Virus record (IMG/VR): IMGVR_UViG_3300020477_001932
Location: 1-64,000 of that record
Direction: 5' to 3' (one strand)
Length of the DNA stretch: 64,000 nt
Source: a virus
Below are positions 9,457-56,887 of this stretch, piece by piece. Under the pieces are notes generated by a model. The model worked only from the letters and a program-made list of their open reading frames with translations. It was not told the origin of the DNA and ran no database searches. A program made the position numbers and the translations under genes. The first letter of the stretch is position 1; each line of letters starts with the position of its first letter.

Positions 9457-10080
9457 ATGAAACTAATAACAGAACATACAAGTGATGTAGAATATATTGT
9501 TGAAGGTAAAGATAAACAACAATATATTAAAGGTATCTTTATGCAATCTGATATTAAGAATCAGAATGGCAGAGTATATCCTTTTTCTGTTCTTCAAAAA
9601 CAAGTAAAAGAATTTAATAATAAATTTGTGAAACAAGATCGAGCATTGGGCGAACTTGGCCATCCAATGGGGCCAACAATTAATCTTGATCGTGTTTCTC
9701 ATGTAATCACAGAATTAATAGAAGATGGTAAAAATTTTGTTGGAAAAGCAAAAATTATTGACACACCGAATGGAAAGATTGTAAAAAATCTTCTTGAGTC
9801 TGGTGTTCGTTTAGGTGTGAGTTCAAGAGGGCTTGGTTCTGTAAAAACAAATAAAAAGGGTGTGAATGAAGTACAAGATGATTTTGTACTTTCCACCGTT
9901 GATATTGTTTCTGATCCAAGTGCCCCTGACGCATTTGTTAATGGCATCATGGAAGGAAAAGAGTTTACTTTAACAGGTGAAGTTGAATATGATATTCAAC
10001 AGGAAATTAGAGATACTGTCAAATTTAGACTTGAACAAAAGAAGATTGAACTATTCAAAAAATTCATGGGTGGTTTATAA
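9457..10080 (+). CDS. gp21: prohead protease
   Basis: MKLITE, NQNGRVYP, GELGHP, LGVSSRGLGS, DIVSDPSAPDAFV. Confidence 0.96.
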   Translation: MKLITEHTSDVEYIVEGKDKQQYIKGIFMQSDIKNQNGRVYPFSVLQKQVKEFNNKFVKQDRALGELGHPMGPTINLDRVSHVITELIEDGKNFVGKAKIIDTPNGKIVKNLLESGVRLGVSSRGLGSVKTNKKGVNEVQDDFVLSTVDIVSDPSAPDAFVNGIMEGKEFTLTGEVEYDIQQEIRDTVKFRLEQKKIELFKKFMGGL

Positions 10081-10110: not shown

Positions 10111-11148
10111 ATGGCTAAAGAAAATGGACAAGTTGAAGAAGCAGAGATAATGGAAGATAGTGATATTGAGAAAAAGATTGAAGAAGGTGCTGGAGCAACT
10201 GCTAATAAAGAGTTAGGTCTGCCTGATGTTGATGATGAAGAAGGTCGCGAAGATTCAGAAGAAGATGGTGAAGGCGGAACAAAGAAAGCACCAGAAAACA
10301 AAACCAAACCTTCTAAAGCATCTGCAAAACAAGAAGCTAAGAAAGAAGATAAAGAAGATGATGTAAAAGAAGAAGAGGAAGAAGCTGAAGAAGAAGAAGC
10401 TAAGAAAGAAGAAATCGAAGTTAATGTAGATGAAGATGTTGCTGCATTGATTAACGGTGAAGAACTTTCTGAAGAATTTAAAACTAAAGCTGCTACAATC
10501 TTTGAAGCTGCTGTTAAATCTAAAATTGCAAAAATTCGCAAACAGATTAGAGAAGAATCTAAGAAAGAGCAAGACGAGCGTATTACATCTATGCAGGATG
10601 AAATGACTGAGAATATGGATAAATACCTCAACTATGCTGCTAAAGAGTGGATGGAAGAAAACAAACTGGCAGTAGAACATGGTGTTCGTAACGAAGTTAC
10701 AGATAGCCTTGTTGCTGGTTTGAAAAAACTATTGGAAGATCATTACATTGATGTTCCAGAAGAAAAAGAAGATGTTTTTGAAAGTCTAGTAATTGAAAAT
10801 AAAGAACTTGAAGAAAAACTAGACACACAAACCCAGAAGCACATGGATACCGTGAAAGAATTAAATACATATAAGGCTGCTTCTATTTTCCAGACCGTTG
10901 CAGAAGGAATGGTCGATACTGATGTTGAAAAGTTTAAAGAATTGGTAGAGGACGTTGATTACGACGCTGATGAACAATATGCAGAAAAATTGAATACTAT
11001 CAAGAATAGCTATTTCAAATCAGATAAAAAAGATGAAGTTGTTGATAACAAGCAAACTGCTGGCACAAACAATCCAGTTGTAGATGGACAAGGTGATGGG
11101 CGTATGGATAGTGTATTAAAAGCAATTTCTAGTTTATCAAAAAAATAA
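10111..11148 (+). CDS. gp22: prohead core scaffolding protein
   Basis: LSEEFKTKAATIFEAAV, YLNYAAKEWMEENKLAV; acidic coiled coil. Confidence 0.93.
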   Translation: MAKENGQVEEAEIMEDSDIEKKIEEGAGATANKELGLPDVDDEEGREDSEEDGEGGTKKAPENKTKPSKASAKQEAKKEDKEDDVKEEEEEAEEEEAKKEEIEVNVDEDVAALINGEELSEEFKTKAATIFEAAVKSKIAKIRKQIREESKKEQDERITSMQDEMTENMDKYLNYAAKEWMEENKLAVEHGVRNEVTDSLVAGLKKLLEDHYIDVPEEKEDVFESLVIENKELEEKLDTQTQKHMDTVKELNTYKAASIFQTVAEGMVDTDVEKFKELVEDVDYDADEQYAEKLNTIKNSYFKSDKKDEVVDNKQTAGTNNPVVDGQGDGRMDSVLKAISSLSKK

Positions 11149-11204: not shown

Positions 11205-12509
11205 ATGTATATGGCAGAAGAACTTTCTGAGAAGTGGAAGCCCGTAATGGAGCATGAGGCACTTCCAGAAATAAAAGACTCTTATCGACGCGATGTTACA
11301 TTGCGTTTGTTGGAAAATCAGGAGAAGTTTCTTAACGAAGCAGCTCCTACAAACTTCATGGGTGCTGCTGGTGCCGAAGGTGCTAACAAATCCGGTGGAA
11401 TTGATATTTGGGATCCTATTTTGATGGGTCTAGTTCGACGCTCTATGCCTCAAATGATCGCTTATGACATTTGTGGTGTTCAGCCTATGACTGGTCCTAC
11501 GGGATTGATCTTTGCTATGAAAGCACGTTACACGAATCAAAGTGGTGGCGAAGCTTTCGGTGCAGCTGGAACCGGTGCAGACGAATCTCATACAGAGCAT
11601 TCTGGTACTGGTACACATACAACAACGGATGATACCAACAATCCTTTCTCTGCTAACGATACCTGGAAAACAGGCGGTGGTATGGCAACAGGTAATGCTG
11701 AAGCTCTCGGAGATGGTACTGGTCCTCATTTCGCAGAAATGGCTTTCACCATTGAGAAAACTTCCGTAACTGCAAAATCTCGAGCTCTGAAAGCTGAATA
11801 CTCTACGGAGTTGGCTCAAGACTTGAAAGCAGTTCATGGTCTTGATGCTGAAACAGAATTGGCAAATATTTTGTCAACTGAAATTCTGCAAGAGATCAAC
11901 CGTGAAGTTGTCCGCACAATTTATTATTGTGCAAAACCTGGTGCGCAGCGTGATACAACAACAGCTGGTTCTTTTGATCTGGACACAGACTCTAACGGTC
12001 GTTGGTCAGTTGAGAAGTTCAAAGGTTTGATGTATCAAATCGAGCGTGATCGTAACGAAATCGGACACGACACACGACGCGGCAAAGGTAACTTTATGAT
12101 CTGTTCTGCTGACGTTGCATCCGCAATGGCTATGGCAGGTATGTTGGAAGCAGGTCATGCACTTAACACAGACGATACAATGTCCACATTTGCTGGTACA
12201 ATGAACGGAATGAAAGTTTACGTTGATCCTTACTACACATCTGATGTTGGTCAGTTCTACTTGGTTGGTTACAAAGGTGCATCTGCTTATGATGCAGGCC
12301 TTTTCTACTGTCCTTACGTTCCTCTACAAATGGTTCGTGCGATGGGTGAAAACACATTCCAACCAAAAATCGGTTTCAAAACTCGTTACGGAATGGTGAA
12401 AAATCCTTTCGTAAACGGTGGTGGCGAAATTGATTTCACAACTGGTGGTACAACCGATTTCGGTAAAAACCAATATTACAGAAAAGTTAGCATTGCCAAC
12501 TTGATGTAA
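11205..12509 (+). CDS. gp23: major capsid protein
   Basis: GVQPMTGPTGLIFA, SRALKAEYSTELAQDLKAVHGLDAE, YCPYVPL, FQPKIGFKTRYG; FLNE/A maturation-type site. Confidence 0.98.
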   Translation: MYMAEELSEKWKPVMEHEALPEIKDSYRRDVTLRLLENQEKFLNEAAPTNFMGAAGAEGANKSGGIDIWDPILMGLVRRSMPQMIAYDICGVQPMTGPTGLIFAMKARYTNQSGGEAFGAAGTGADESHTEHSGTGTHTTTDDTNNPFSANDTWKTGGGMATGNAEALGDGTGPHFAEMAFTIEKTSVTAKSRALKAEYSTELAQDLKAVHGLDAETELANILSTEILQEINREVVRTIYYCAKPGAQRDTTTAGSFDLDTDSNGRWSVEKFKGLMYQIERDRNEIGHDTRRGKGNFMICSADVASAMAMAGMLEAGHALNTDDTMSTFAGTMNGMKVYVDPYYTSDVGQFYLVGYKGASAYDAGLFYCPYVPLQMVRAMGENTFQPKIGFKTRYGMVKNPFVNGGGEIDFTTGGTTDFGKNQYYRKVSIANLM

Positions 12510-15519: not shown

Positions 15520-15945
15520 ATGAAAGTTAATATGATTAATAAAAGTGAAAATCCATTACCAAAGTATGCAAAAGAAGGTGATGCTGGTATGGATATTTGT
15601 GCAGCTGAAGATGTTGCTATACCAGCATTTTGTTGGGAGGCAATTTTAACTGGAATATATATGCAACTTCCAGAAGGCTATGAATGTCAAATAAGATCAA
15701 GGTCTGGATTAGCTGCAAAACATGGTATTCAAGTTTTAAATAGTCCTGGCACTATTGATTCTGGTTATCGTGGTGAAGTTAAAGTTATATTAAAAAATAA
15801 TGCATACGCACCTTATGATATTAAAAAAGGTGATAGAATTGCACAGATGGTTTTTGCACCTGTAACAACTGCATCTATTACAGAAGTTGCTGAACTTTCT
15901 GATTCAGAACGTGGTGAAGGTGGATTGGGGAGTACAGGAAAATGA
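15520..15945 (+). CDS. dut: trimeric dUTPase
   Basis: AGMDI, RSGLA, GTIDSGYRGE, RIAQ, RGEGGLGSTG. Confidence 0.96.
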   Translation: MKVNMINKSENPLPKYAKEGDAGMDICAAEDVAIPAFCWEAILTGIYMQLPEGYECQIRSRSGLAAKHGIQVLNSPGTIDSGYRGEVKVILKNNAYAPYDIKKGDRIAQMVFAPVTTASITEVAELSDSERGEGGLGSTGK

Positions 15946-16466
15946 CTGATAAGAAAAAACATTATGTTGACAATGAGAAGTTTTTTACTGAAATGAAGAA
16001 ATGGAAGCAAAGAGTACATGATGCTCGTGAGGTGGAAGATGATGATCCACCTACAACTGAATATATGGGTGAGTGTTTTCTAAAGATTTGTGAACATCTA
16101 GCCATGCGTCCAAATTTTATTAATTACACATTCCGTGATGATTTGATTTCTGATGGAATCGAGAATTGTTTGCTTTATGCTCACAATTTCAATCCAGAAA
16201 AATCGAAGAATCCTTTTTCATATTTTACACAAATTATTCATCATGCTTACGTTAGGAGGATAGTAAAAGAAAGAAAATTAATGCACGTTAAATATCTGCT
16301 CGTTGAACGGGAAGGTATATTAGAAGAAATAAGTAAATCTGGTGAAAGCCATAAAAAAATGACTAAAGAATGGGTGGACTATTTAAGAACCCATGAAAAA
16401 TATGCTGTAAATCCAACAAAGAAGAAAAAGAAGAAGAAGGCTGATTTAGAGTTGTATTATAGATAA
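15942..16466 (+). CDS. gp55: late transcription sigma factor
   Basis: HYVDNEKF, PNFINYTFRDDLISDGIENC, NPFSYFTQI. Confidence 0.95.
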   Translation: MTDKKKHYVDNEKFFTEMKKWKQRVHDAREVEDDDPPTTEYMGECFLKICEHLAMRPNFINYTFRDDLISDGIENCLLYAHNFNPEKSKNPFSYFTQIIHHAYVRRIVKERKLMHVKYLLVEREGILEEISKSGESHKKMTKEWVDYLRTHEKYAVNPTKKKKKKKADLELYYR

Positions 16467-33756: not shown

Positions 33757-34686
33757 ATGAATAAATTAAGATACAGCGAAATGTTTTATTCCCTCCAAGG
33801 AGAAGGAAGGTACGTTGGTGTGCCTTCCGTTTTCCTTCGGCTGTTTGGATGTAATTTTGAATGTCGTGGCTTCGGTCAAGATAGAGATAAATCCAAATGG
33901 TTACCTGAAGATCAAATGCCTCATAATACAGATTATCCAGATGTAAAATCTATCGTAGATTTACCAGTTCCTCAACTTGGTTGTGATAGCTCTTTTTCTT
34001 GGGGAAAGAAATGGGGCCACCTAGCCAATTATGAGGATATTGATACTATCGTTAAAAAAATGAATGAGTTTACAAATTGGTATGGACAAAAAGAAAGGAT
34101 GGAGGGGGACATATCAGCTGCACTTAAACAAGATGATGCTGTTCATTTAGTTATTACTGGAGGAGAGCCGTTGTTAAAAGGATTTCAGTCAGGTGTATTT
34201 GAATTAATGACACATCCAGATTTATTAACACGTTATGTTACCATTGAGACAAATGGTACGCAAATATTTTCTCCATATGATTATTTTGCAGGTCATAATT
34301 ATATGTTTCCAGATCATCATAGAAAGTTTGGTGTAAATAAAAATGCAGGTATAACATGGTCTGTTTCACCAAAGCTTTCTAATAGTGGTGAAAGTTGGAG
34401 TGAAGCAATTAGACCAGAAGCACTTGCATCATATAATGCTTGGCCTTATTCTTATTTGTATCTCAAGTTTGTTATTAGGGATGAATATGATTTGGTAGAA
34501 GTAGAACAAGCTATTCGTGAATATGATAAAGCTGGTGTTAATATATGTGCAGTTTATTTGATGCCTGAGGGTGCAGTAGATCATCAAATGGAAGAATTAA
34601 AAATAGCAAAGATTGCATTAAAACATGGATATAAGTATAGTCCTAGACTACATTTAAATCTTTTTGGAAATGAGTGGGGGACATAA
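33757..34686 (+). CDS. queE: 7-carboxy-7-deazaguanine synthase (radical SAM)
   Basis: SLQGEG, FLRLFGCNFEC..(insert)..GCDS, ITGGEP, IETNG, SVSPK, PRLH. Confidence 0.92.
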   Translation: MNKLRYSEMFYSLQGEGRYVGVPSVFLRLFGCNFECRGFGQDRDKSKWLPEDQMPHNTDYPDVKSIVDLPVPQLGCDSSFSWGKKWGHLANYEDIDTIVKKMNEFTNWYGQKERMEGDISAALKQDDAVHLVITGGEPLLKGFQSGVFELMTHPDLLTRYVTIETNGTQIFSPYDYFAGHNYMFPDHHRKFGVNKNAGITWSVSPKLSNSGESWSEAIRPEALASYNAWPYSYLYLKFVIRDEYDLVEVEQAIREYDKAGVNICAVYLMPEGAVDHQMEELKIAKIALKHGYKYSPRLHLNLFGNEWGT

Positions 34687-35144
34687 TGTCACAAGCATTA
34701 AAGAAAGGCAGAAGTGGACAAAGAGGTATTAAGAATGCTGATAGAGTAAATGATACTGAAATGTTTTGTTCTGAGTATAAAGATGAAAATGGAAAGCAGG
34801 TTCGTCTTGGAAAAATCAGGCTTGCACATGAAATCAATGATGGTTTAAAACATATTGCACATGATTTAAATACTACTAAAGCAGAACTAGTAAGAACATT
34901 ATTTGTTGATTTTATACAGGATTATAAAGAAGCTAAAGCTACTGGTGCTATACAAAAGTTTACACCAGCACAAACTATTGAAAGATATTTAACCAGTAGA
35001 TATGAGTTCTTCCAATTATTCAATGAACTTAAAAAACAAACAAAATATTTGGAGGATTCTAAATCACCAGAAGTTAAAATTTTATCAAGACAAATTAGTA
35101 TAATAGCAGAAATGTTAAACCTTACAAATAAGAATGTGATATGA
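34686..35144 (+). CDS. putative ribbon-helix-helix DNA-binding protein
   Basis: KIRLAHEINDGLKHIAHDLNTTKAELVRTLFVDFI resembles CopG/RHH. Confidence 0.5.
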   Translation: MSQALKKGRSGQRGIKNADRVNDTEMFCSEYKDENGKQVRLGKIRLAHEINDGLKHIAHDLNTTKAELVRTLFVDFIQDYKEAKATGAIQKFTPAQTIERYLTSRYEFFQLFNELKKQTKYLEDSKSPEVKILSRQISIIAEMLNLTNKNVI

Positions 35145-35608
35145 ATAAATATAATTATTATTATGACCAGTATTATAAAGATATAACAGAGATTGTTGAA
35201 AGACACGAAGCAACACCAAATTTGCACGTTGTCGGTGTTTATCGTGGTTCATTACCAATAGCTACTCATTTAAGCAATGCTCTTGAGTGTCCTATGAGTA
35301 TTATTAAATTTCAGTCGCGAGACGGTTCTGATGATAAAGCAGAATGGATGTTAAATTTAACAGATGATGAAAGCTTAAGGCCTGAAAAGTCTAAGCAGTT
35401 TTTTCCAACATTATTGGTTGTGGATGATGTTTATGATACTGGAAAAACTTTTAGGGCTATTAAAGAATTACCAGAGCTTAAACAAAATCCAGATTATCAT
35501 TGTATTGCATTGTTTGGTAATGAAAATAATGATGGTGTAACTTATATCCATGAGCAACTATATAGATGGATAGTGTATCCTTGGGAAAGAGTAGGAGGTG
35601 CTATGTGA
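35141..35608 (+). CDS. type I phosphoribosyltransferase (Gpt-like)
   Basis: VGVYRGS, PRPP motif LLVVDDVYDTGKT, WIVYPWE. Confidence 0.88.
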   Translation: MNKYNYYYDQYYKDITEIVERHEATPNLHVVGVYRGSLPIATHLSNALECPMSIIKFQSRDGSDDKAEWMLNLTDDESLRPEKSKQFFPTLLVVDDVYDTGKTFRAIKELPELKQNPDYHCIALFGNENNDGVTYIHEQLYRWIVYPWERVGGAM

Positions 35609-36048
35609 AATATGAGAGTACGAAAACGTATGGTAATGATAGAGGTTTGAGTTGTTGTTTTCGTCAATGGAAAGCAACTAGTCATTGTAAATATTTACAT
35701 GGTTATAGTTTAGGTTTTAGATTTACATTTGAAACAGATGAATTAGATGGTAGAAATTGGGTTTATGATTTTGGTAATTGTAAATGGATTAAAGTGTTTC
35801 TTGAACAAACATTTGACCATAAGCTTTTAATAGATAAAAATGATCCTGATATAGAACATATATATAAAATACATGATGAAAATATGGCACAAGTTCTTAC
35901 AATGGATGGTGTTGGTTGTGAGAAGTTTGCTGAGTATGTTTATAATTATGTTTTACGACAAGTTCAAGAAGAAACAGGAGGACGAGTTAATTTGAAAAGT
36001 GTTGAGTGTTTTGAACATGGTTCAAATAGTGCAATATATTATGGTTAG
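35605..36048 (+). CDS. queD: 6-carboxytetrahydropterin synthase
   Basis: SHCKYLHGY, NWVYDFG, FDHK, GCEKFA; GTG start after AGGAGG. Confidence 0.9.
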   Translation: MKYESTKTYGNDRGLSCCFRQWKATSHCKYLHGYSLGFRFTFETDELDGRNWVYDFGNCKWIKVFLEQTFDHKLLIDKNDPDIEHIYKIHDENMAQVLTMDGVGCEKFAEYVYNYVLRQVQEETGGRVNLKSVECFEHGSNSAIYYG

Positions 36049-36065
36049 TGAGAGGAGCTTATATA

Positions 36066-36734
36066 ATGAAAATTTCAGAAAAGATAAAAAATGCATTAGA
36101 CAAGGGTTACTTAGCTAATGATACAATATATGATGTTATTAATGATGAAGATAGAATAGAGTTAATAGAAGAAGTTAAAGAGGCATTTCAAGGTGTATTG
36201 GATGCTTTAGTTATAGATACAAAGAATGACCACAATACACAAGAGACAGCAAAACGTGTAGCAAAAATGTTTGTCAATGAAATATTCCGTGGCAGATATT
36301 ATCCCCCGCCTTGTGTTACTGCATTTCCAAATGCAAAGCAGTATGACCAGATTTATATGTCTGGCCCCATAACAATCAATTCAACGTGTGCGCACCATTT
36401 CCAAGCTATTGCTGGAAAAGCATATGTTGGAATCTTTCCGGGAAAGAAAGTTATTGGATTATCCAAGTTTAATCGTATGGTTGATTGGGTTGCATCCAGA
36501 CCACAAATTCAAGAAGAAATGACAGAACAAATAGCAGATATGATACAAGAAGAAACTGAAGCAAAGGGTGTAGCTGTTATTGTTAAAGCAGAACATTTTT
36601 GTATGACGGCAAGAGGTGTTAAAGAACATGAAAGTGATATGGTAACATCTGTTGTGCGTGGTATTTTTCGTGATGAACCAGCAACAAAAGCTGAGTTCTT
36701 TTCTTTGTTAAGTAATATGAAAGGGATGCAATAA
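36066..36734 (+). CDS. folE: GTP cyclohydrolase I
   Basis: STCAHH, GLSKFNR, QIQEEMT, HFCMTARGV. Confidence 0.95.
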   Translation: MKISEKIKNALDKGYLANDTIYDVINDEDRIELIEEVKEAFQGVLDALVIDTKNDHNTQETAKRVAKMFVNEIFRGRYYPPPCVTAFPNAKQYDQIYMSGPITINSTCAHHFQAIAGKAYVGIFPGKKVIGLSKFNRMVDWVASRPQIQEEMTEQIADMIQEETEAKGVAVIVKAEHFCMTARGVKEHESDMVTSVVRGIFRDEPATKAEFFSLLSNMKGMQ

Positions 36735-37516
36735 TGGTAAACATGGTAACTAGTGGTAAACAAGAAGCTACTGGTAAATCTGTTTTATTATATTCTGGTG
36801 GCATGGATAGTTTGATGTTTGACTATTTAATGAAGCCTGATGTATTATTGTATATTCCGACTGGTAGTGAATACGAAATGATAGAAAGCAGTAAAATACG
36901 TTTACTTGGTAAATATGGTTATTTGGATGAAGATAAATTAGTTGTTTTACCTCGTGTTTTAAATTTAAGTAAGTTTGAACGTGATGATGCAATCGTTCCA
37001 AATCGTAACGCACATTTAATGTTGTTAGCTTCTATGTATGGTGAAGATTTGATTCTTGGAAGTGTTCAAGGTGATAGATCATTCGATAAGGATCCTATTT
37101 TTTATCAGAAAATGACAGACTTGTTAAATCATATGTGGAAAGAACAGCATTGGACTGAGGAACGTGTTTTTAAAGTTAGCTCTCCATATAAAGATAAAAC
37201 AAAGACGGAGATTGTTAAAGAGTATCTGGAAAAGGGTGGTAGTGCAGACGCATTACTACTTTCATGGAGTTGTTATGATCCACAATCAAGATATTTGTTA
37301 GACCCCGAAAGGGCTTGTGGATGGTGTAAACCATGTTTTCGTAAATGGATTTCACTTCATAATAACAATATAAGTATTCCAGAAGATTATTATGCAAACA
37401 ATCCATGGGAAGCACCATGGCTTGAAAAGTTAATTCCTTCTGTACTTGAAAAGAATTATCGAGGAAAAGAAGATTATGATTGGTGTGATGCCTTAACAAG
37501 TAAAGGAGTTTTATGA
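36734..37516 (+). CDS. queC: 7-cyano-7-deazaguanine synthase (QueC-like)
   Basis: YSGGMDS, VPNRN, SWSCY, CGWCKPC. Confidence 0.88.
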   Translation: MVNMVTSGKQEATGKSVLLYSGGMDSLMFDYLMKPDVLLYIPTGSEYEMIESSKIRLLGKYGYLDEDKLVVLPRVLNLSKFERDDAIVPNRNAHLMLLASMYGEDLILGSVQGDRSFDKDPIFYQKMTDLLNHMWKEQHWTEERVFKVSSPYKDKTKTEIVKEYLEKGGSADALLLSWSCYDPQSRYLLDPERACGWCKPCFRKWISLHNNNISIPEDYYANNPWEAPWLEKLIPSVLEKNYRGKEDYDWCDALTSKGVL

Positions 37517-38763
37517 AAGACGCGATTTACATTCCAGCATATAGTGATGGTTTAATGAATTTACTGGAAAAAGATGATGCTGATGCAAGTGAAAAATATC
37601 AGTCAAGTTTTGATAAAAAGAAATCATTAAGAATATATAAGAAAGATAGTGATTCGTATTTTAAGAATTTCTTTATGTTAATCTCAGCTGGTACACAACA
37701 TAATAAAAAAGATTTTAGAAAAACTATTCAAGCAGAAGATGCAAAGATATTTGTTGATAGTGGAGGATACCAGTTAGCACATTCCACAGTTAATCATAAA
37801 AAGTACACAGATGATATAGCTTTGAAATGGTCTGAAGAAAATGGTGATATATTTCCAATTTTAGATAGGCCAACATTTACGCTTGGAATGATGAGAGATG
37901 GAAAACCAGTATCGCCATATAAAGATTATCAAGAATGTTTGGATTTGTCAGTAAATTCTGCAAAACATTATTCAGAAAATCGTACACGTTCAGATGCAAA
38001 AATCTTAAATGTTATACAGGGCCAAACGATACCACAAGTTAAGAAGTGGTATGATGAAATAAAGAAGTATGAGTTTGAGGGTTGGGCATATGGTGGTACA
38101 AGAGGCAATTTGGGTCGTATTGTTCCAGCAATATTGTTTTTAATTAATAACAAAGAATTTGATAGACCTAAGTGTGATTTATTTCATATATTTGGTGTAA
38201 CATCAAATGAAAGTATGATTTATTTTCAGTATCTTCAAATGTTACTAAATAAACATAATATTGATATGCAGATAACATATGATTCAACATACTGGAATCG
38301 TACTGTTGTTTTTGGTGGTTACTTTACAGAGGCTAGATATATTACTGGAACTGGTATGGCTTCTATGAATTGGCCTAATACAATTAGTTATGAAAATCTT
38401 TCAAAAGATTTTAAATTACCTTGTCATTGTCCTATATGTAAAGATTGCACAGATGTTTATTCTTTATTTAATCAATATAAGACAAATAAAGAGGGCAAAG
38501 AAGTGGTAGTTTTTAGAGATTTTAATATGACAATGGCATTTCATAATTTATATTTACAGTTAGAATATCTTGAAAATATTACAAGAATTTTAAAATCAGG
38601 CATGAAAGAGATTTATTTAGAGTTTTTTCCAAAGAAAATTTATGATAATTTAATCTTTTTAGAAGGAGTTTTTAATAATATGTCAAAAGATTGGGAAGGA
38701 GAGCTAAATAAACGATTTCTAAAGGCTGAGGATCTTAATACATTAGAGGGTTTTTTTGGATGA
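37513..38763 (+). CDS. TGT-family transglycosylase, probably DNA-acting DpdA-like
   Basis: VDSGGYQ, PILD, VIQG, GWAYGG, HIFG, YDS, CHCPIC..H zinc site; last gene of preQ0 run. Confidence 0.8.
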   Translation: MKDAIYIPAYSDGLMNLLEKDDADASEKYQSSFDKKKSLRIYKKDSDSYFKNFFMLISAGTQHNKKDFRKTIQAEDAKIFVDSGGYQLAHSTVNHKKYTDDIALKWSEENGDIFPILDRPTFTLGMMRDGKPVSPYKDYQECLDLSVNSAKHYSENRTRSDAKILNVIQGQTIPQVKKWYDEIKKYEFEGWAYGGTRGNLGRIVPAILFLINNKEFDRPKCDLFHIFGVTSNESMIYFQYLQMLLNKHNIDMQITYDSTYWNRTVVFGGYFTEARYITGTGMASMNWPNTISYENLSKDFKLPCHCPICKDCTDVYSLFNQYKTNKEGKEVVVFRDFNMTMAFHNLYLQLEYLENITRILKSGMKEIYLEFFPKKIYDNLIFLEGVFNNMSKDWEGELNKRFLKAEDLNTLEGFFG

Positions 38764-46605: not shown

Positions 46606-48027
46606 ATGCGAACTGAAACATTGATTTTAGAAAATCTTTTATATAATGACAATTATTCAAGTATCGTTGGTATCTTCTTAAAACCAGAATATTTCAAAGA
46701 GAACGCTGAGAAGCAAATCTTTATAGAAATACAAAAACACATTTCGGAGTTTAATAAAGCTCCAACAAAAGAAGCACTATCAGTCAAACTGAATAACAGA
46801 GAAGATTTGAATGAAGCTGCATTTAATAAATGTAATGAAGTTCTTGAAACTCTAAAAGGTAAAACAGATGATGAAGAATGGTTGACAAAAGAAACAGAAA
46901 AGTGGGCAAAAGACCAAGCAGTATATAATGGTATCGTGCAAAGTATTTCTATCTTGGAAGGTAAAGATAAGAAAGCCTCCAAGGATGTCATTCCAGAAAT
47001 TCTTACAGAAGCATTAGCCGTTTCATTAGATAAAAGTATCGGACATAATTATTTGGAAGATGGTGAAAATAGATGGGAATTTTATCATCAAAAAGAAACT
47101 AAAATTCCATTTAAAATGATTATGCTTGATAAAATTACTGGTGGTGGTATCTCGCCAAAAACTCTTACAGTCTTATTAGGTGGAACTGGTGTTGGTAAAA
47201 CTCTAGTAAAAACTCATTTTGCATCACAATATTTAAGACAGGGAAAAAATGTTTTATATATTACAATGGAAATGGCTGAAGAAAGAATAGCTGAAAGAGT
47301 TGATGCTAACTTAATGGATGTTGAGTTAAATGATTTACATAGAATGCCGAAAGATATGTTTGAGAAAAATCTCAAAGAAATGAAAATCGGTAAGTTAGTT
47401 GTTAAAGAATATCCAACAGCTGGAGCCCATGTTGGTAATTTTCGTGCATTGATACGAGAATTGAAAATTAAAAAAGACTTCACACCAGATATTATCATTT
47501 TGGATTATTTAAATATTTGTGCATCTAGCAGAGTGAAGTGGGCTGCAAATATGAATACCTACATTTATATCAAATCTATTGCAGAGGAGGTTCGTGGTTT
47601 GGCAGTAGAATGTAATGTTCCAATTATTACAAGTTCACAATTAAATCGGGAAGGGTTTACAAGTTCGGATCCTGATTTATCTAATACGTCTGAAAGTTTT
47701 GGATTACCAGCAACAGCAGATTTAATGCTTGCAATTATAGCAAAAGATGATGGAGTTGGTACGAATAACCAGATTTTGTTTAAGCAGTTGAAGAATCGTT
47801 ATAGTGATATTTCTTTGAATAGTAAATTCTTGGTTAATGTAGTTAAGAAGAAAATGATGTTGGTGGATATAGAAGAAAATGACCAGCCTGCTCTAGCAAA
47901 TGATGGTAGCAATAAATATTATGAAAAGAAGTCAGATGCAAATTCTAGTTCAAATCCATTGGCCAAAGAGTTCAAAATTAGACCAAAGTTGAGGACTGAA
48001 AAAGCCTATGATGATTGGAATATATAA
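46606..48027 (+). CDS. gp41: replicative helicase
   Basis: GGTGVGKT, YITMEMAEERIAERVD, KEYPT, DYLNIC, SESFGLPATAD, QLKNRY. Confidence 0.96.
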   Translation: MRTETLILENLLYNDNYSSIVGIFLKPEYFKENAEKQIFIEIQKHISEFNKAPTKEALSVKLNNREDLNEAAFNKCNEVLETLKGKTDDEEWLTKETEKWAKDQAVYNGIVQSISILEGKDKKASKDVIPEILTEALAVSLDKSIGHNYLEDGENRWEFYHQKETKIPFKMIMLDKITGGGISPKTLTVLLGGTGVGKTLVKTHFASQYLRQGKNVLYITMEMAEERIAERVDANLMDVELNDLHRMPKDMFEKNLKEMKIGKLVVKEYPTAGAHVGNFRALIRELKIKKDFTPDIIILDYLNICASSRVKWAANMNTYIYIKSIAEEVRGLAVECNVPIITSSQLNREGFTSSDPDLSNTSESFGLPATADLMLAIIAKDDGVGTNNQILFKQLKNRYSDISLNSKFLVNVVKKKMMLVDIEENDQPALANDGSNKYYEKKSDANSSSNPLAKEFKIRPKLRTEKAYDDWNI

Positions 48028-48030
48028 ATA
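48023..48030 (+). promoter_or_regulatory. late promoter
   Basis: TATAAATA overlapping gp41 stop. Confidence 0.7.
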
Positions 48031-48289: not shown

Positions 48290-48297
48290 TATAAATA
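48290..48297 (+). promoter_or_regulatory. late promoter heading the capsid-cargo cluster
   Basis: Intergenic TATAAATA. Confidence 0.7.
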
Positions 48298-48307
48298 TAG
48301 AGTAAAT

Positions 48308-48493
48308 ATGAGTGATGATATTAAAAAAATGTTTTCCGATGCAGTAGAAAAAGCCGTAACGGAAAAAGAAGAAATTAGTGAAAATTCTATCTTACATAGA
48401 ATTTTAGCTACTAATGTTGACCATTATAAGATATGTCCATTTCGGTCATTAAACGTGGATGATTGCCCACTATGTAAGATAAAAAACTTATGA
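48308..48493 (+). CDS. small Cys-rich protein
   Basis: HYKICP..CPLC; ATGA overlap with next gene. Confidence 0.6.
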   Translation: MSDDIKKMFSDAVEKAVTEKEEISENSILHRILATNVDHYKICPFRSLNVDDCPLCKIKNL

Positions 48494-49590
48494 AATCATT
48501 TAAGAATTTTTTAAAAGAAGCAGATACTTCTGGTGCATTTGAAATGGAGGCAGCTCTTGTTGCAGCTGCAAACAATGACAATAAAGCCAAGTTCAAAGAC
48601 CCAACTGTTTCTGTTGCAAATGCTAAGAAAGTTTTAAAATCACAAAAGATAAAAGGAAAAGGAAAATTTCCTAGCAGTCGATATGAAGTAACAAAAGAAT
48701 GGGCTTCCTATTTTGATGGTGGTAAAGTTCCAAGTGCTACTAAAACACCTAAGACTGATATTATAATTGGAAAAAATTATATTTCTTTAAAAACGGGTGA
48801 TGCACAATTAATGAGTGGTCAACGGCCTGAAGCACAAGCAACTTTTTATGCAGCTATGAAAAAAACTGATAATACGGCTTTGTTGAAAAAAGTAGAAAAA
48901 CAATTAAAAGAATTAAAAACAGCTTTTCGTCTAACAAACAAAAAAGGAAAAGAAATTCATGGTAACAAACGTGATTTGATAGGAACAGCAAAAGGACAAG
49001 TGTTAGAAGAAATAGATGTGTTTCATAGAAAATTTAAAAAAGATTTAAGAAAGGCATTTGAATCAAATTCTAAATTTGCTCAAGAGTTTACTTTTGAAGC
49101 TATGACAGGAGCTCAAAAGTTTGGAAAGAATGAGGGGACTGCTACTTCTTTTCTTATAACAAATAAAGAAGGAACAAAATCTGATTTTCATACTGTTATA
49201 AAATCATCTGATAAATATGTTAAGAAAATTGCAAGTCAAGTAAAGCCTGATGTTAGATTTAAGTCAGGGTCTGTTAAAGGTTCTGCTGATAAAACAGGAA
49301 AGAAAATATATAATTTCTGGGCCACAGTTGGTTTGGGTGTTAAGATGGTTTTGGATGAAGGTTTTGAACAGATTGAAAAAGAAATGCTAACAGAAGGAAT
49401 ACTTGATAAAGCTAGTGTGGTATGGGATAAGTTGAAAAGTAAAGTAACCAATTTATTTGACAAATTTATTGATTGGATTATGGAAAATTTCCAAAAAGCA
49501 AAATCTTGGATTGGTGATAATTGGAAAAGATTGGTTGATTATATGGATTATGAACCCATGGTGTCATATACAAATAATATTAAGTGGTAG
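48490..49590 (+). CDS. putative internal head protein with PD-(D/E)xK-like motif
   Basis: N-terminal MKSFKNFLKE; PKTDII..ISLK. Confidence 0.55.
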   Translation: MKSFKNFLKEADTSGAFEMEAALVAAANNDNKAKFKDPTVSVANAKKVLKSQKIKGKGKFPSSRYEVTKEWASYFDGGKVPSATKTPKTDIIIGKNYISLKTGDAQLMSGQRPEAQATFYAAMKKTDNTALLKKVEKQLKELKTAFRLTNKKGKEIHGNKRDLIGTAKGQVLEEIDVFHRKFKKDLRKAFESNSKFAQEFTFEAMTGAQKFGKNEGTATSFLITNKEGTKSDFHTVIKSSDKYVKKIASQVKPDVRFKSGSVKGSADKTGKKIYNFWATVGLGVKMVLDEGFEQIEKEMLTEGILDKASVVWDKLKSKVTNLFDKFIDWIMENFQKAKSWIGDNWKRLVDYMDYEPMVSYTNNIKW

Positions 49591-49593
49591 TTT

Positions 49594-50817
49594 ATGTTAT
49601 CATTCAAAGAAGTATTAAATGAAGATAAAAATACGCACATGGAGCACCTTGAAGATGAAATCATCAACAATGGTGTAAAAGGTGCGACAACAGTAATAAG
49701 GTTTTTAGATTCCTTGAAAGATATGTTATCTGGTGGAAAAAAGAAAACCAATATTACTACGAAGTGGGATGGAGCTCCAGCAATTTTTGCTGGAATCAAT
49801 CCAGAGAACGGAAAGTTTTTCGTCGCAATAAAAGCATTGTTTAATAAGTCCCCCAAAATAAATTATACGGTAGCTGACATTAAAGCTAATCATGGTTCAG
49901 GCGGGCCTTCAGATAAAATAAAACTTGCGTTGAAACATTTACCGGATCTCGGATTAGATGATGGAGTCTATCAAGGTGATATAATGTTTTCTAAAGGTGA
50001 TTTGAAAAAACAAACAATAGATGGTGAGAGTTGTTTGACATTTACACCGAATACTATCACCTATGCTGTTCCAGAAGATAGTGATTTGGCTTCTGATATG
50101 AGGAAGGCAAGTATTGGAGTGGTGTGGCACACAAAGTATTCAGGAAACAGTATTGCTGATTTGAAAGCATCTTATGGTGTTGATTCAAGTCAATTCAATA
50201 AAAGTAAAAAAGTTTGGTTTGATGATGCATATGTAGATACTGCAAATGCAGCTACGTTTTCTCCAAGTGAAATAAAAACACTTGAAGGCAAAATCAGACA
50301 GGTGGCTGGTGCAGCTTCCAAAGCAGGTAAATTTTTAAATCAACTTTCTAAAGATAAAACTAAGTGGGGATTAGCTCCACTTATGAAAATCTTTTTTAAT
50401 TCAAAGATTCGTGAAGGAGATAAGATAGCAGACACAAAAAATCTTGTTAAAGAGTTTCAGCAATACTATGTCGCTCGAATGAAACAAGAGATCGACTCAA
50501 AGAAATCTGATAAAGGTAAACAGAAATATAAAGATATTCAAAAAGAATCAGAAAAGACTTTAAAGAAATTCAAAGACGAATTATATTTTACAATGGCCAC
50601 TTACTTGGGAATACTTGAAGCAAAAGAAATGGTCATTAGAAAACTGGAAACTATAAAAGGTATTGGTACGTTTTTAAAAACTAAAGATGGGTTTAAAGTA
50701 ACAGCACCAGAAGGCTTTGTTGCTATTAATTCAAAAGGCGGTGCTGTTAAATTAGTTGATCGACTTACTTTTTCCCATGCTAATTTTACAATAGCTAAAG
50801 ATTGGGTAAAGGGGTGA
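49594..50817 (+). CDS. putative internal head protein, DUF6267-like with ligase-type motifs
   Basis: MLSFKEVLNE; HMEHLED, TTKWDGAP, YQGDIMF, PEGFVA, VKLVDR. Confidence 0.7.
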   Translation: MLSFKEVLNEDKNTHMEHLEDEIINNGVKGATTVIRFLDSLKDMLSGGKKKTNITTKWDGAPAIFAGINPENGKFFVAIKALFNKSPKINYTVADIKANHGSGGPSDKIKLALKHLPDLGLDDGVYQGDIMFSKGDLKKQTIDGESCLTFTPNTITYAVPEDSDLASDMRKASIGVVWHTKYSGNSIADLKASYGVDSSQFNKSKKVWFDDAYVDTANAATFSPSEIKTLEGKIRQVAGAASKAGKFLNQLSKDKTKWGLAPLMKIFFNSKIREGDKIADTKNLVKEFQQYYVARMKQEIDSKKSDKGKQKYKDIQKESEKTLKKFKDELYFTMATYLGILEAKEMVIRKLETIKGIGTFLKTKDGFKVTAPEGFVAINSKGGAVKLVDRLTFSHANFTIAKDWVKG

Positions 50818-50821
50818 TACT

Positions 50822-50992
50822 ATGCTAGAAGATTTAAAAGAACTCAGAAGAATATTAGATAGATTTATAGCTAAGTATGAAAAAGAAGCTATATATTGTG
50901 TAGGGCAATTAGAAGTAGATAGAGAAGAAGAAAAAGAACCAGATAACAATTTAACAAAGGAAGGATTTTGGAGAGGGAATGACATCTATTAG
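50822..50992 (+). CDS. small hypothetical protein (56 aa)
   Basis: GGGGTG SD; MLEDLKELRRILDRFIAKY...; fills gap. Confidence 0.55.
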   Translation: MLEDLKELRRILDRFIAKYEKEAIYCVGQLEVDREEEKEPDNNLTKEGFWRGNDIY

Positions 50993-51170
50993 ATCGAGGT
51001 ATTGTGCAAAGTGTGATGCAGTATTGAAGTGGAATTGTAAGTGTCCAAATAACAGAGCCATGGCATGGCATAGAAAAAACGTATTTCATTCTGGTAAACG
51101 GTATAAGGGGAAAAAGGCTTGGAAAAAAGTTTATCCAGATGAAGTTGAATATAAAGGGGATTCAAAATGA
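50979..51170 (+). CDS. small basic Cys-rich protein
   Basis: CAKC..CKC; overlaps neighbours. Confidence 0.55.
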   Translation: MTSIRSRYCAKCDAVLKWNCKCPNNRAMAWHRKNVFHSGKRYKGKKAWKKVYPDEVEYKGDSK

Positions 51171-51466
51171 AATCATTTAGAAAATTTGTTAAAGAGGGAA
51201 CTAAGGAAGAATACAACAAACTTTTTGATGCAAAACTAAAAAAGTATGGTGTTGATAGTCCTGAAGATTTGTCTGATGAAGAAAAGAAAAAGTTTTTTGA
51301 TGAAATTGATAAAGAATGGAAGTCTGATAAAGAGGAAGTTAAAGAGTTTATTAAGAAAGATGGTGCAAGGCGTCGTGTTGCTGGTGGCGACGGTCGAAAG
51401 AGTAAAAAGTCTAAAGAAGAAGGTTGTGCTGACCATGAGGATGAGGAAGAAGAGGAAGAAGAATGA
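51167..51466 (+). CDS. putative internal head protein
   Basis: N-terminal MKSFRKFVKE; acidic tail. Confidence 0.65.
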   Translation: MKSFRKFVKEGTKEEYNKLFDAKLKKYGVDSPEDLSDEEKKKFFDEIDKEWKSDKEEVKEFIKKDGARRRVAGGDGRKSKKSKEEGCADHEDEEEEEEE

Positions 51467-51786
51467 AAGGCTTTGGAACATTCATAAAAGAAAATTGGAA
51501 AGATGAAGCTACTGAGTTAAAGCTATTCATTGATAATGATGCAAATCTTTATCGTCAAAGACTTGTTCCTATTGTCAAAAATATCCAGAAGAAAATGAAG
51601 TCTGGAAAGTATGACCATAAGAAAGCTCCTAAACTTTGGAAGTATCTTGTAGATGATGGTGCAAAGAAATATGCTAAAGAATTTCCAGGTGTTAAGTTTG
51701 ATAGGAAAGTTAAAGATCATGTTGCACAAGAATTTGCAGATGAATACAGAGTTGAAATAGAAGCCCAAGGCGGAAAGATGTTCTAA
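51463..51786 (+). CDS. putative internal head protein
   Basis: N-terminal MKGFGTFIKE; ELKLFIDNDANLY..KLWKYLVDDGAKKY. Confidence 0.65.
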   Translation: MKGFGTFIKENWKDEATELKLFIDNDANLYRQRLVPIVKNIQKKMKSGKYDHKKAPKLWKYLVDDGAKKYAKEFPGVKFDRKVKDHVAQEFADEYRVEIEAQGGKMF

Positions 51787-52373
51787 TGAAAAGTTATAGG
51801 AAATTCATAAACGAAGCAAAAGGTGATACAGCTGTTTTCTCTTTTGGTAGAATGAATCCTCCTACCATTGGACACGGGAAACTTATCGCTAAAGTTATTT
51901 CAGTTGCAAAGAAAGAAAGAGCAACACCTATTATTTTTCCTTCAAAGACCGAAGATAAAAAGAAAAATCCTTTGTCATTTAAAACAAAAGTGAAAGTAAT
52001 GAAGGATGTTTTTGGTAATGTTATAAATACTGATACATCAATAAAGACACCCTTTGACGTATTAGACAAGCTAAATAATGATAAGTATGAAAAAGTTGTT
52101 TTTGTAGTTGGCAGTGATCGGGTAAGCGAATTCAAACGAAATATGAGTAAATATGTTGATAGCGACCTTGATAATATAAAAGATTTTTCAGTTGTCTCAG
52201 CAGGAGATCGTGATCCAGACGCTGAGGGTGTTGCTGGTATGTCTGGTTCAAAAATGAGAGACTTTGTTATTAAAGATAAGTTTAGCAAGTTCAAGGAAGG
52301 GCTTATGACGAAGAATGCTAGACTTGCAAAAGCCGTTTTCAAAGAGATCGGCAAAAAATTAAAAATCAAATAG
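51786..52373 (+). CDS. cytidyltransferase-like (HxGH-class) nucleotidyltransferase, putative head protein
   Basis: MKSYRKFINE; FGRMNPPTIGH, KNPL, VVGSDR, SAGDRDPD, MSGSKMR. Confidence 0.85.
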   Translation: MKSYRKFINEAKGDTAVFSFGRMNPPTIGHGKLIAKVISVAKKERATPIIFPSKTEDKKKNPLSFKTKVKVMKDVFGNVINTDTSIKTPFDVLDKLNNDKYEKVVFVVGSDRVSEFKRNMSKYVDSDLDNIKDFSVVSAGDRDPDAEGVAGMSGSKMRDFVIKDKFSKFKEGLMTKNARLAKAVFKEIGKKLKIK

Positions 52374-52387
52374 GAGGAGAACCTATA

Positions 52388-52459
52388 ATGCATCCAAGAT
52401 TTATGCAAGCTTTAATATTTTTGGCAGGTTGGGCAGTAGCAGGTTATTTGTATCATTAA
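52388..52459 (+). CDS. 23-aa hydrophobic peptide
   Basis: AGGAGG SD; MHPRFMQALIFLAGWAVAGYLYH. Confidence 0.5.
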   Translation: MHPRFMQALIFLAGWAVAGYLYH

Positions 52460-52485
52460 ATATTATTAGAAAGGAGTAAAATAGT

Positions 52486-52677
52486 ATGGAAACTATGATT
52501 TTAGCATGGGCACAGGGACAATCTTGGTTTGGTATTGCTTGCACAGTTATTGCAGTTGCAAACGCAGTTACTCTTACCTTAAAAGATGATTATGCAGAAA
52601 AATTGCCTGTTCTTGGAAAAATATGGCCGATTCTGAATTGGTTGTCTTTGAATGTTCATAATAATAAAAATGGTTAA
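52486..52677 (+). CDS. small membrane protein (holin-like)
   Basis: AAGGAG SD; TM helix plus amphipathic ILNWLSLN..NKN. Confidence 0.55.
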   Translation: METMILAWAQGQSWFGIACTVIAVANAVTLTLKDDYAEKLPVLGKIWPILNWLSLNVHNNKNG

Positions 52678-52683
52678 TAATTG

Positions 52684-52716
52684 ATATATGGGGGAAGCTT
52701 CCCCCATATATTTTTT
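52684..52716 (+). terminator. intrinsic terminator, perfect 28-bp palindrome
   Basis: ATATATGGGGGAAGCTTCCCCCATATAT then T run. Confidence 0.85.
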
Positions 52717-55285: not shown

Positions 55286-56887
55286 ATGTCAGAAAAAGAA
55301 TACGTTGTTATTGTTAAAGAAGGGGAAGATTTAAATGCACTTGATGCTGAAATGGCAGCTAGTTCTGGAAGTGGTGTTATACCAGATCGTGCTGTAGTAT
55401 GTGCTGATCCACAAACACATGATACACGAATGACACATTGGAATCTTACAGATGCAGAAGCAGAAACACTAAAAGGTGATGGTAGAGTTTTAGCTGTTGA
55501 AAGACCAACTAAAGACAGAACAGATATTGAAATTGCACCTGTTGCTAGACAACCTGAAACATTTACCAAAGGGAATAATCCTGCTGGTGGTGTTAATTGG
55601 GGATTGTCTCGTTGTAATTATAGCATTGATAATTTCGACGGTAACGATTCAATATTTGATAACTACAAATACGCTATGACAGGTAAAGATGTTGATGTTG
55701 TTATCATGGATAGTGGTATTGAACTTGACCATCCAGAGTTTAAAGACGCTGCAGGAAATAATCGAATACAAGCAATAGATTGGTATGCAGCTTCTAATGG
55801 TGCTATGACAGGTACTCAGGGTGCTGATTGGTACACCGATACTAATGGTCATGGTACTTTTTGTGCAAGTATTTCTTGTGGTAAGAAATATGGTTGGGCA
55901 AAGGATGCTAACATATATTCTATTCCAATTTATAATAATGCAGCTGCTGTTTCAGCTGAAACTGCTATGGACTTGGTAAGACATTGGCATAATAATAAGG
56001 GTACGAATAAACCAACTATTGTTAATATGAGTTTTGCTTATCTTTATACAATGGACAATGCTGGAACACAAAATGGTGATAATGGTCAATGTTGGGATAC
56101 ATTTACTGGTCAAATGGATATATGGACTTTTGGTGATCCGGGTTATACTAATGCAAATGAAATAGAAGATAATGTTGATCTTAATTCTTTTACAAAACCA
56201 GCATCAAGAGTTGCATCTGTTGATGCGAAACTTGACCAAATGATTGCAGCTGGTATTCATATTTCTATTGCAGCTAATAATAATTATGAAGTTCAATATG
56301 AATATGAAGATAGCGCAAATGACAACTATAATGATTTTATGGTTCGACCTACTTTTGCTGGTGGAGCTCCATTGTATTACCATCGCGGCTCTAGTCCAAG
56401 AGGTACTATGAAGGGTGGAGCAGAAATGGTTGTTGGTAATATTGGTGTCGATTATACTAATAATAAAGAAAGATTAAGAGCATCATCTGCAAATGGAGAG
56501 GCAGTAGATATATTTGCACCTGGCACTCAAATTACTGCGGGAGTTTCTAATGTCAATAGTGGATTTTATGCAGACACAGCACATCCGGATGATGGAAGTT
56601 GGAAAATCGGTAATAGTTCTGGTACAAGTTTTGCTTGCCCTCAAGTTGTTGGTGTTGGTGCATTATATTTGCAAAACGAGCCAAACCTTACGCCGGATGA
56701 GTTGAAAGCAAAAATGTTGCATGATTCAAAAAAAGGTGTATTGTATGATGATCTTAATTGGGATCAAAAAGATTTGGGTAAGTATGCAGATCATGTTACT
56801 ACAAACAAAGGCTTGATGGGAGGGCCTAACAAAGTTCTTTATAATAGATTTACTGGTGATGTTTTTGTAGGATACTACGAAGCTTAA
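55286..56887 (+). CDS. subtilisin-family (S8) serine protease
   Basis: Catalytic D (VIMDSG), H (NGHGT), S (SGTSFACP); N-terminal propeptide; DIFAPG. Confidence 0.92.
   Translation: MSEKEYVVIVKEGEDLNALDAEMAASSGSGVIPDRAVVCADPQTHDTRMTHWNLTDAEAETLKGDGRVLAVERPTKDRTDIEIAPVARQPETFTKGNNPAGGVNWGLSRCNYSIDNFDGNDSIFDNYKYAMTGKDVDVVIMDSGIELDHPEFKDAAGNNRIQAIDWYAASNGAMTGTQGADWYTDTNGHGTFCASISCGKKYGWAKDANIYSIPIYNNAAAVSAETAMDLVRHWHNNKGTNKPTIVNMSFAYLYTMDNAGTQNGDNGQCWDTFTGQMDIWTFGDPGYTNANEIEDNVDLNSFTKPASRVASVDAKLDQMIAAGIHISIAANNNYEVQYEYEDSANDNYNDFMVRPTFAGGAPLYYHRGSSPRGTMKGGAEMVVGNIGVDYTNNKERLRASSANGEAVDIFAPGTQITAGVSNVNSGFYADTAHPDDGSWKIGNSSGTSFACPQVVGVGALYLQNEPNLTPDELKAKMLHDSKKGVLYDDLNWDQKDLGKYADHVTTNKGLMGGPNKVLYNRFTGDVFVGYYEA

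Follow-up and report, generated by a model that had tools for sequence, protein, structure and literature searches.

The internal proteins IPI, IPII and IPIII of bacteriophage T4 begin with a capsid targeting sequence (CTS) of ten residues, M-K-[ST]-[FY]-x-x-F-[IL]-x-E followed by a small residue, as the work of Mullaney and Black (1996) is presented in PMC9026906 and PMC3012670. In T4, residues 1-10 of IPIII are sufficient for packaging, and amber-suppressor genetics has assigned targeting mainly to residues 4 and 7 and processing to residues 8 and 10 (PMC9026906). The T4 internal proteins that contact DNA are reported to be basic and Lys-rich (PMC3012670). A review on T4 has already proposed that the CTS enables T4-like phages to load a variety of proteins (PMC9026906). 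In this work we analysed the first 64 kb of the 74,256-bp IMG/VR virus record IMGVR_UViG_3300020477_001932, the completeness of which is estimated at 41%. This stretch of 64,000 nucleotides is called the window below, and it contains a cluster of five neighbouring genes whose products share an N-terminal decapeptide of the same kind, hereafter the tag.

Enzymes carried in phage heads have been described in other systems. The T4 ADP-ribosyltransferase Alt is processed by the protease gp21, delivered with the DNA and active before phage transcription (PMC9026906). We liken the proteins described here to Alt, with the differences that the chemistry is not the same, that there is no homology and that Alt is cut at both ends (PMC9026906). 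Proteins considered 'non-structural', comprising cytidylyltransferase/NMNAT-like proteins, kinases and an S-adenosylmethionine (SAM) hydrolase, recur in CsCl-purified virions of the cyanomyoviruses S-CREM2, S-SCSM1, S-CBWM1 and S-CRM01, and whether they are cargo or contaminants has been left undecided (PMC10665884, PMC9602691); the NMNAT-like proteins are among those reported in PMC9602691. In giant phages of the SPN3US/phiKZ-like group many head-internal proteins are cut after Glu by the prohead protease and then ejected, according to the accounts in PMC5694885 and PMC7411985. These phages form another lineage and, as far as those accounts go, have different and longer propeptides with no common decapeptide.

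The locus resembles the T4 internal-protein system in that unrelated cargo proteins stand behind the tag in variable gene clusters, that the mature proteins are mostly basic and Lys-rich and that the genome has the matching protease, scaffold and gp23 site. It differs in that the cargo is non-homologous and that three of the five proteins are enzyme-sized and have catalytic motifs, in place of small inhibitors. Unlike T4, this phage is marine and Kyanoviridae/pelagimyophage-like, and its system, unlike that of the cyanomyoviruses for which proteomic data exist, is known from the genes alone. The mechanism is the known one of T4, and the new elements are a near-identical tag in an abundant marine lineage, the enzyme cargo and an explanation of virion proteomes. 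The tag has so far been treated mainly as a coliphage feature, and here it stands nearly unchanged on enzymes of very abundant ocean phages.

Five tagged genes and the T4 head-maturation site

A first-pass annotation of the window had proposed that five dissimilar proteins share a capsid-targeting decapeptide, and all five open reading frames (ORFs) are present with the N-termini it gave. They lie on the + strand between 48490 and 52373:

48490..49590, + strand, cargo 1, 366 amino acids, tag MKSFKNFLKE followed by A, coded at 48490-48519
49594..50817, + strand, cargo 2, 407 amino acids, Pfam DUF6267, tag MLSFKEVLNE followed by D
51167..51466, + strand, cargo 3, 99 amino acids, tag MKSFRKFVKE followed by G
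51463..51786, + strand, cargo 4, 107 amino acids, tag MKGFGTFIKE followed by N
51786..52373, + strand, cargo 5, 195 amino acids, tag MKSYRKFINE followed by A

All five tags have F or Y at position 4, a hydrophobic residue at position 8 and E at position 10, and the proteins without their tags have no significant similarity among themselves, in agreement with the first-pass description. The genome-wide motif scan that it had suggested was made in six frames over the complete record, using the strict pattern M-x-x-[FYW]-x-x-[hydrophobic]-[ILVMF]-x-E, and at real gene starts the tag was confined to these five genes. Given how the N-termini of the remaining genes are composed, 0.135 of the 103 + strand genes would be expected to match by chance, and five do (binomial P ~3e-7), all within seven consecutive genes. 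A looser pattern gave false positives, and all counts are therefore based on the strict one. We treated as false positives, matching the loose pattern only, a 533-amino-acid protease-like ORF at 55286-56887 (phrog_3677), which starts with MSEKEYVVIVKE and was not retained as cargo, and several untagged genes of S-CREM2.

In the T4 record NC_000866, ipII and ipIII open with MKTYQEFIAE followed by Ala, and ipI opens with MKTFKEF.... The five tags have an aromatic residue (F/Y) at position 4, F/V at 7, L/V/I at 8 and E at 10, and thus agree with T4 at all four functional positions, as the likeness to MKTYQEFIAE pointed out at first pass would have it. The predicted processing sites, [LI(V)]-x-E at residues 8-10 and the residue that follows, read LKE|A, LNE|D, VKE|G, IKE|N and INE|A. 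Over 76 distinct tags of relatives, the positions that are not constrained are also biased in a T4-like manner, with K at 2, S/T/N at 3, K/R at 5 and A/G/D/S at 11.

The window encodes homologues of the T4 proteins that process and assemble the head:

9457..10080, + strand, homologue of the gp21 prohead protease (phrog_207, E 4e-73), 40% identical to T4 gp21
10111..11148, + strand, homologue of the gp22 scaffolding-core protein (phrog_237, E 1e-71)
11328..11339, + strand, codons 42-45 of gp23 (FLNE), followed by Ala46, in the gene at 11205-12509

The gp21 homologue, which retains the GELxHP and GVSSRGLGS blocks of T4 gp21, is presumed to be the enzyme that removes the tags, and the gp22 homologue, with ten [LIV]-x-E sites each followed by a small residue, is their presumed docking partner. 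In gp23 the FLNE/A site cited by the first-pass annotation is indeed found, and ...EKFLNE|AAPTN aligns column for column with ...SFLTE65|A66 of T4 gp23 as the predicted maturation cleavage site. The tags finish with a sequence of this form, and their ends thus look like the head-maturation site of the phage itself. The N-terminus of the gp21 homologue, MKLITE|H, resembles the N-terminal LIE of T4 gp21, a possible autocleavage site (PMC9026906).

Other T4-like myovirus genes in the window are those of the large terminase, sheath, tube, portal, UvsY, UvsW and the late sigma factor gp55. The head protein shares ~60% identity with its counterparts in Methylophilales phage Melnitz and in cyanophages P-RSM6 and S-SZBM1, and on this basis we assign the phage to the marine Kyanoviridae/pelagimyophage-like group. 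The G+C content along the window is 29-38%, mostly 30-35%.

The tag in relatives and in cyanophage virions

Eighty IMG/VR loci around homologues of the DUF6267 protein (cargo 2), which range from 93% down to 41% identity to that of the window, were used for comparison. The strict tag is present on 114 of their 1844 + strand ORFs and on 3 of the 1174 mostly spurious ORFs of the - strand. The tagged ORFs fall into 23 similarity groups, with at least 20 real and mutually unrelated families. One widespread family is P-loop kinase-like (GGPGSGKS) and occurs in HTVC008M as gp129 with a shortened tag; the HTVC008M tags are shortened versions. Runs of four or five consecutive tagged genes were seen in two relatives (L066:6297-9084 and L062:558-3272), and the proteins of the L066 run all start with MISF... 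and have no counterpart in the window.

The tag has the properties of a module. Among the 120 closest DUF6267 homologues (>=78% identical) 119 are tagged, the exception being one truncated entry, and the DUF6267 proteins of S-PM2, S-CRM01 (g132), L060, L061 and L082 begin exactly where the tag ends. The Glu at the junction never varies in the alignments of cargo 1 (13 sequences with identities as low as 22%) and of cargo 5 (24 sequences, as low as 37%), and in that of cargo 2 its conservation is at least 90%, although the length of the propeptide runs from 8 to ~35 residues. In the cargo 1 family the leader has 10 to ~35 residues and nearly always ends with [LIVM]-x-E, immediately before the start of the conserved domain. 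The codons are free to vary: the five tag-coding stretches differ for Ser (TCA/AGT), Phe (TTT/TTC) and Glu (GAA/GAG), and synonymous codons are equally free across 81 distinct tag-coding sequences of relatives. Because the junction Glu is invariant or nearly so while synonymous codons vary, selection acts on the peptide. In the structure models obtained for cargos 1 and 2 the first 12-14 residues, comprising the tag, are disordered.

The S-CREM2 genome was rebuilt from the public record, scanned for the tag and compared with the published virion proteome (PMC10665884). Four genes carry the strict tag:

gp6, SAM hydrolase, MKDFDSFLEE
gp14, kinase, (V)KRFDAFLTE
gp136, hypothetical protein, MQTFSMFFSE
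gp154, cytidylyltransferase, MKNFSSFLTE

All four products are found among the 52 virion proteins out of 219 (hypergeometric P 0.003), and P is 3e-4 once recognised structural proteins and lysins are set aside. Three proteins with near-tags are also in the virion list, namely gp13 (MKDLHSFLTE), gp15 (MNFSEFNE|S) and gp12, in which a long leader ends with FASFMAE|A, and the untagged neighbours gp1-5 and gp7-11 are not in that list. In S-CRM01 tags are present on the cytidylyltransferase (MKLFNQFFKE), on the large kinase-like protein g130 (MISFDQFLSE) and on products of neighbouring genes; g130 is a virion kinase according to a second-hand statement in PMC10665884. Long leaders of the form M..RW..WS.G..., ending with F-x-x-F-[IM]-x-E|AA, were observed in S-CREM2 gp12 (L096:7704-10313, - strand) and S-CRM01 g128 (L094:2453-3004), and look like an extended class of propeptide, comparable to the 19-residue leader of IPI.

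The tag offers a simple explanation for the presence of kinases, NMNAT-like transferases and SAM hydrolase in purified cyanophage particles, and our literature search found no paper linking virion proteins of cyanophages or marine phages to a capsid targeting sequence. It may also serve as a predictor of packaged, and probably injected, proteins from metagenomic sequence alone. The T4 residue match, the gp21/gp22/gp23 machinery, the modular tag, the invariant junction Glu, the disordered N-termini and the S-CREM2 virion proteins bear out the capsid-targeting interpretation of the first-pass annotation. That the ten N-terminal residues are a T4-type CTS, with the docking, cleavage and ejection steps proposed below, we consider probable, at roughly 80%.

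The cargo proteins and the layout of the cluster

The phage very probably packs a nuclease-like protein, a ligase-like protein, a nucleotidyltransferase and two small proteins, and packaging as such is well supported, if indirectly. The enzymatic names had been given at first pass, and each of them stands at the level of fold or superfamily. The mature forms of cargos 1 to 5 have masses of 40, 44, 10, 11.5 and 21 kDa, and four of the five resemble the T4 internal proteins in composition, with an isoelectric point (pI) of 9.4-9.8 and 15-19% Lys.

Mature cargo 1 (40 kDa) has a pI of 9.7 and 16% Lys. Its structure model, with a predicted local distance difference test score (pLDDT) of 74.8 and residues 1-12 disordered, matched the folds of MspI (Z 7.9 over 179 amino acids), NhoI (5.4), HinP1I (5.2) and I-Ssp6803I (5.1), mixed with helical-bundle matches of similar Z that come from the long helical insertion of the protein. 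The invariant residues are D90, S99-x-K101, E114 and E203, in addition to E10 at the junction, and the Ser in the middle of the motif is non-canonical for PD-(D/E)XK. Cargo 1 may share with MspI/HinP1I-type PD-(D/E)XK endonucleases a restriction-endonuclease-like alpha/beta core, with its invariant D...S-x-K block as the candidate motif in the expected place. It differs from them by the Ser where Asp/Glu/Asn/Gln stands, by the long helical insertion and by having neither a Pfam family nor a methyltransferase partner. No family was found for it in Pfam or NCBIfam; a profile search retrieved 327 relatives, and among the best 120 one has Pfam PF12699 and none is informatively named. Judged from the model, cargo 1 is likely to be a nuclease of the PD-(D/E)XK type.

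Cargo 2 belongs to Pfam DUF6267 (E 2.7e-119). In an exhaustive VIA structure search with its model (pLDDT 84.8, residues 1-14 disordered), the nine best of 48,161 chains were all RNA ligases (Z 6.9-9.2). Among these ATP-dependent enzymes were Naegleria NgrRnl (5cot, Z 9.2), T. brucei REL1 (1xdn, 8.1), the Trl1 ligase (8.1), T4 Rnl2 (7.5) and T4 Rnl1 (7.4), with which the common nucleotidyltransferase fold extends over 170-200 aligned residues at Z 7.4-9.2. Invariant over 40 sequences, down to 42% identity, are K57-W-D59-G60, which is ligase motif I (KxDG), and E373-G374 and K386, candidates for motifs IV (EG) and V (K). Unlike the RNA ligases, cargo 2 has a helical bundle of ~130 residues inserted between the motifs (approximately residues 224-351), and its likeness to ligases comes from fold and motifs. 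In sequence searches only Pfam DUF6267 matched, with no curated ligase family, no NCBIfam model and no PDB sequence; searches of PDB chains with single sequences and profiles of cargos 1, 2 and 5 gave nothing usable.

Cargo 5 passes PF01467 (28.2 bits, cutoff 21) and matches phrog_3041 (E 6e-53). It is a HIGH-motif nucleotidyltransferase, the 'cytidylyltransferase/NMNAT-like' protein of cyanophages, with invariant T27-I-G29-H30 and S153...R158 (the TIGH and SGSKMR motifs), and is far below the equivalog cutoffs for NadD/NMNAT (PRK08887, 19.7 bits for a cutoff of 164; TIGR00482, 16.1 for 112). The cytidylyltransferases of S-CREM2 (gp154) and S-CRM01 are its homologues and bear the same tag, and gp154 was found in virions. 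PHROG 455 includes proteins in which DUF6267 and the transferase are fused, and relatives have proteins of up to 1203 residues that begin with the transferase domain, which suggests a joint action of cargos 2 and 5.

The families of cargos 3 and 4 are small and known from viruses alone, and the protein atlas placed both proteins only among unnamed viral clusters. Cargo 3 (phrog_28651) is highly charged and has a poly-Glu tail; cargo 4 is basic and Lys-rich. BLASTP of the mature cargos against IPI, IPII and IPIII gave nothing significant. Mature cargo 4 aligns with T4 IPIII (ipIII at L004:10835-11416, - strand) over precursor residues 87-173, equivalent to mature residues 77-163, with a Smith-Waterman score of 62 versus a shuffle mean of 31 (z 5.8, reached by 0 of 500 shuffles), and with an E of only 0.13 in hhalign; it may be a remote relative of IPIII, or this may be a composition effect. 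Homology to the T4 internal proteins is not required, as those of T-even phages are themselves unrelated. No defence or anti-defence family matched any of the five cargos, PADLOC giving only a weak, below-threshold match of cargo 4 to a Cmr1 model (E 0.007).

Around the tagged genes the following features are found:

46606-48027, gp41 helicase
48023..48030, + strand, TATAAATA, T4-type late-promoter-like motif overlapping the gp41 stop codon, 26 nt before a 73-amino-acid ORF at 48056
48290..48297, + strand, TATAAATA, late-promoter-like motif, 11 nt before the 61-amino-acid ORF that overlaps the start of cargo 1
48308..48493, + strand, untagged 61-amino-acid ORF, kept in relatives and ATGA-coupled to cargo 1
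50822..51170, + strand, two untagged small ORFs (56 amino acids, and 63 amino acids and Cys-rich) inside the cluster
52486..52677, + strand, untagged 63-amino-acid hydrophobic ORF, the last gene before the terminator
52683..52712, + strand, intrinsic-terminator-like hairpin (GGGGGAAGCTTCCCCC core) followed by a T-run
15942-16466, homologue of the gp55 late sigma factor

The two small ORFs inside the cluster are probably not cargo. The terminator that the first-pass annotation had placed near 52684 is a strong hairpin with a T-run. In 21 of 50 related loci TATAAATA stands no more than 700 nt before the first tagged gene, at 33-42 nt in 10 of these, with ~0.16 expected per locus, which speaks to some extent for the promoter reading.

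Proposed mechanism and alternative explanations

Following the T4 model, the five proteins would be made late, and the aromatic residue 4 and hydrophobic residue 7 of the tag would dock onto the gp22 core while the prohead assembles. The gp21 protease would then cut after Glu10 in [LIV]-x-E, as it would in gp23 at FLNE45|A46, and the mature proteins would be retained in the head beside the DNA until both exit at infection. Cleavage after Glu10 is supported by the conservation of the predicted site. Docking onto the scaffold and, by analogy with T4, ejection into the host with the DNA and a function of the cargo there are what we infer. With low confidence, we suggest that the nuclease-like cargo 1 might attack unmodified host DNA, and that the ligase-like enzyme and the nucleotidyltransferase might act jointly on RNA, DNA ends or a nucleotide cofactor before phage gene expression, perhaps as a repair or cofactor-restoring pair, a suggestion to be held as loosely.

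Between the replication genes, at 33757-38763, the phage encodes a 7-deazaguanine pathway, comprising a radical-SAM protein (QueE-like, weak), a phosphoribosyltransferase, QueD/PTPS, FolE (GTP cyclohydrolase I), QueC and a TGT-like protein (DpdA-type), and its DNA is therefore probably 7-deazaguanine-modified. Such a predicted modification probably bears on how a packaged nuclease would spare the phage DNA.

Several observations weigh against this interpretation. In being acidic, cargo 3 departs from the T4 internal proteins. Glu10 is missing from some orthologues of cargo 4, which have ...FIEA... instead, so that cleavage may differ in them. The present phage is represented by its genes, and the proteomic data come from a cultured relative, S-CREM2, that is not a close one; the S-CREM2 test comprises four strict tags only, and the authors of that proteome caution that abundant proteins may co-purify with virions (PMC10665884). 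The two late promoters announced at 48023 and 48290 were found as motifs, but TATAAATA is not enriched in the window (12 occurrences, 11.6 expected), and for this reason their reading as promoters, and with it the late timing, rests on position. Foldseek searches of the PDB were not significant for cargo 1 (E 0.09-0.7) or for cargo 2, coherent lists of matches having come from the exhaustive VIA search alone, and the best Z scores, 7.9 for MspI and 9.2 for the ligases, are middling. The Foldseek result, together with the lack of a sequence-level ligase match, is why cargo 2 is called ligase-like and not a ligase. Finally, a nuclease packed beside the DNA of its own phage needs protection, which is here putative.

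A broader scenario would be that abundant marine T4-like phages, which are relatives of cyanophages, pelagiphages and methylophilales phages, bring a kit of ready-made enzymes into the host by means of the T4 tag. The kit would act within the first seconds of infection. One part of it, the ligase-like enzyme together with the nucleotidyltransferase and, in relatives, the P-loop kinase, would repair damage to tRNA or cofactors caused by host defences, and the other part, the restriction-like nuclease, would cut host DNA while sparing the modified phage DNA. We regard this scenario as speculative and rather doubtful. If it were true, the tag would be a sequence rule for reading out the injected proteome of uncultured ocean phages. 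The tagged genes are in any case candidates for host takeover or counter-defence in the first minute of infection, in phages whose hosts are hard to study.

The alternative that survives best, improbable as we find it, is that the tagged proteins enter the particle as minor structural or core fillers and are degraded or kept in the head, so that they are not effectors in the host. The T4 proteins gp67, gp68 and gp22 are indeed gp21-processed core proteins and not effectors, the small and charged cargos 3 and 4 have no recognisable fold, and, as said above, the search for defence and anti-defence families was negative. Fillers would not be expected to keep catalytic motifs, which three cargos do (KxDG/EG/K in cargo 2, TIGH/SGSKMR in cargo 5 and D...SxK in cargo 1); the strong conservation of these complete motifs makes the filler explanation hard to sustain. 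The same enzymes are also found untagged in other phages, and thus have a function of their own, and fusions to the T4 CTS are delivered into cells (PMC9026906).

Still less probable is that the shared N-terminus is a signal unrelated to the capsid, such as a translation-initiation or RegA-type repressor site on the mRNA, a signal for degradation or timing, or a peptide that docks to a phage chaperone or complex. In its favour, control of groups of mRNAs through their initiation regions does occur in T4-like phages, and the coding DNA is A+T-rich immediately after the ATG. What is conserved, however, is the amino-acid sequence, with free synonymous change that extends to Ser TCA/AGT, and the peptide follows the T4 CTS position by position and closes with the gp23-type cleavage site of the phage. 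The tagged proteins are, moreover, those found in S-CREM2 virions.

That the decapeptide is a functionless relic of recombination or duplication between neighbouring genes is hardly credible and was rejected on the codon differences: the genes are adjacent and the CTS-coding DNA of T-even phages is thought to promote cassette exchange, but many codons differ among the five coding sequences, the Glu at the junction does not vary, and the tag persists on at least 20 families and in loci where the DUF6267 homologue is only 41-49% identical to that of the window. A relic would be expected to show tag-coding DNA that is nearly the same from gene to gene and little conserved from phage to phage, the reverse of what is observed. 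None of these alternatives fits both the codon data and the virion data.

IMG/VR classifies the record as 'provirus', although its gene content is that of a fragment of a lytic T4-like myovirus. At 9009-9456, in the interval from the portal to the protease gene that in T4 holds gp67 and gp68, there are two small ORFs, neither of which matches a PHROG family, and the 79-amino-acid ORF of this pair contains six [LIV]-x-E sites.

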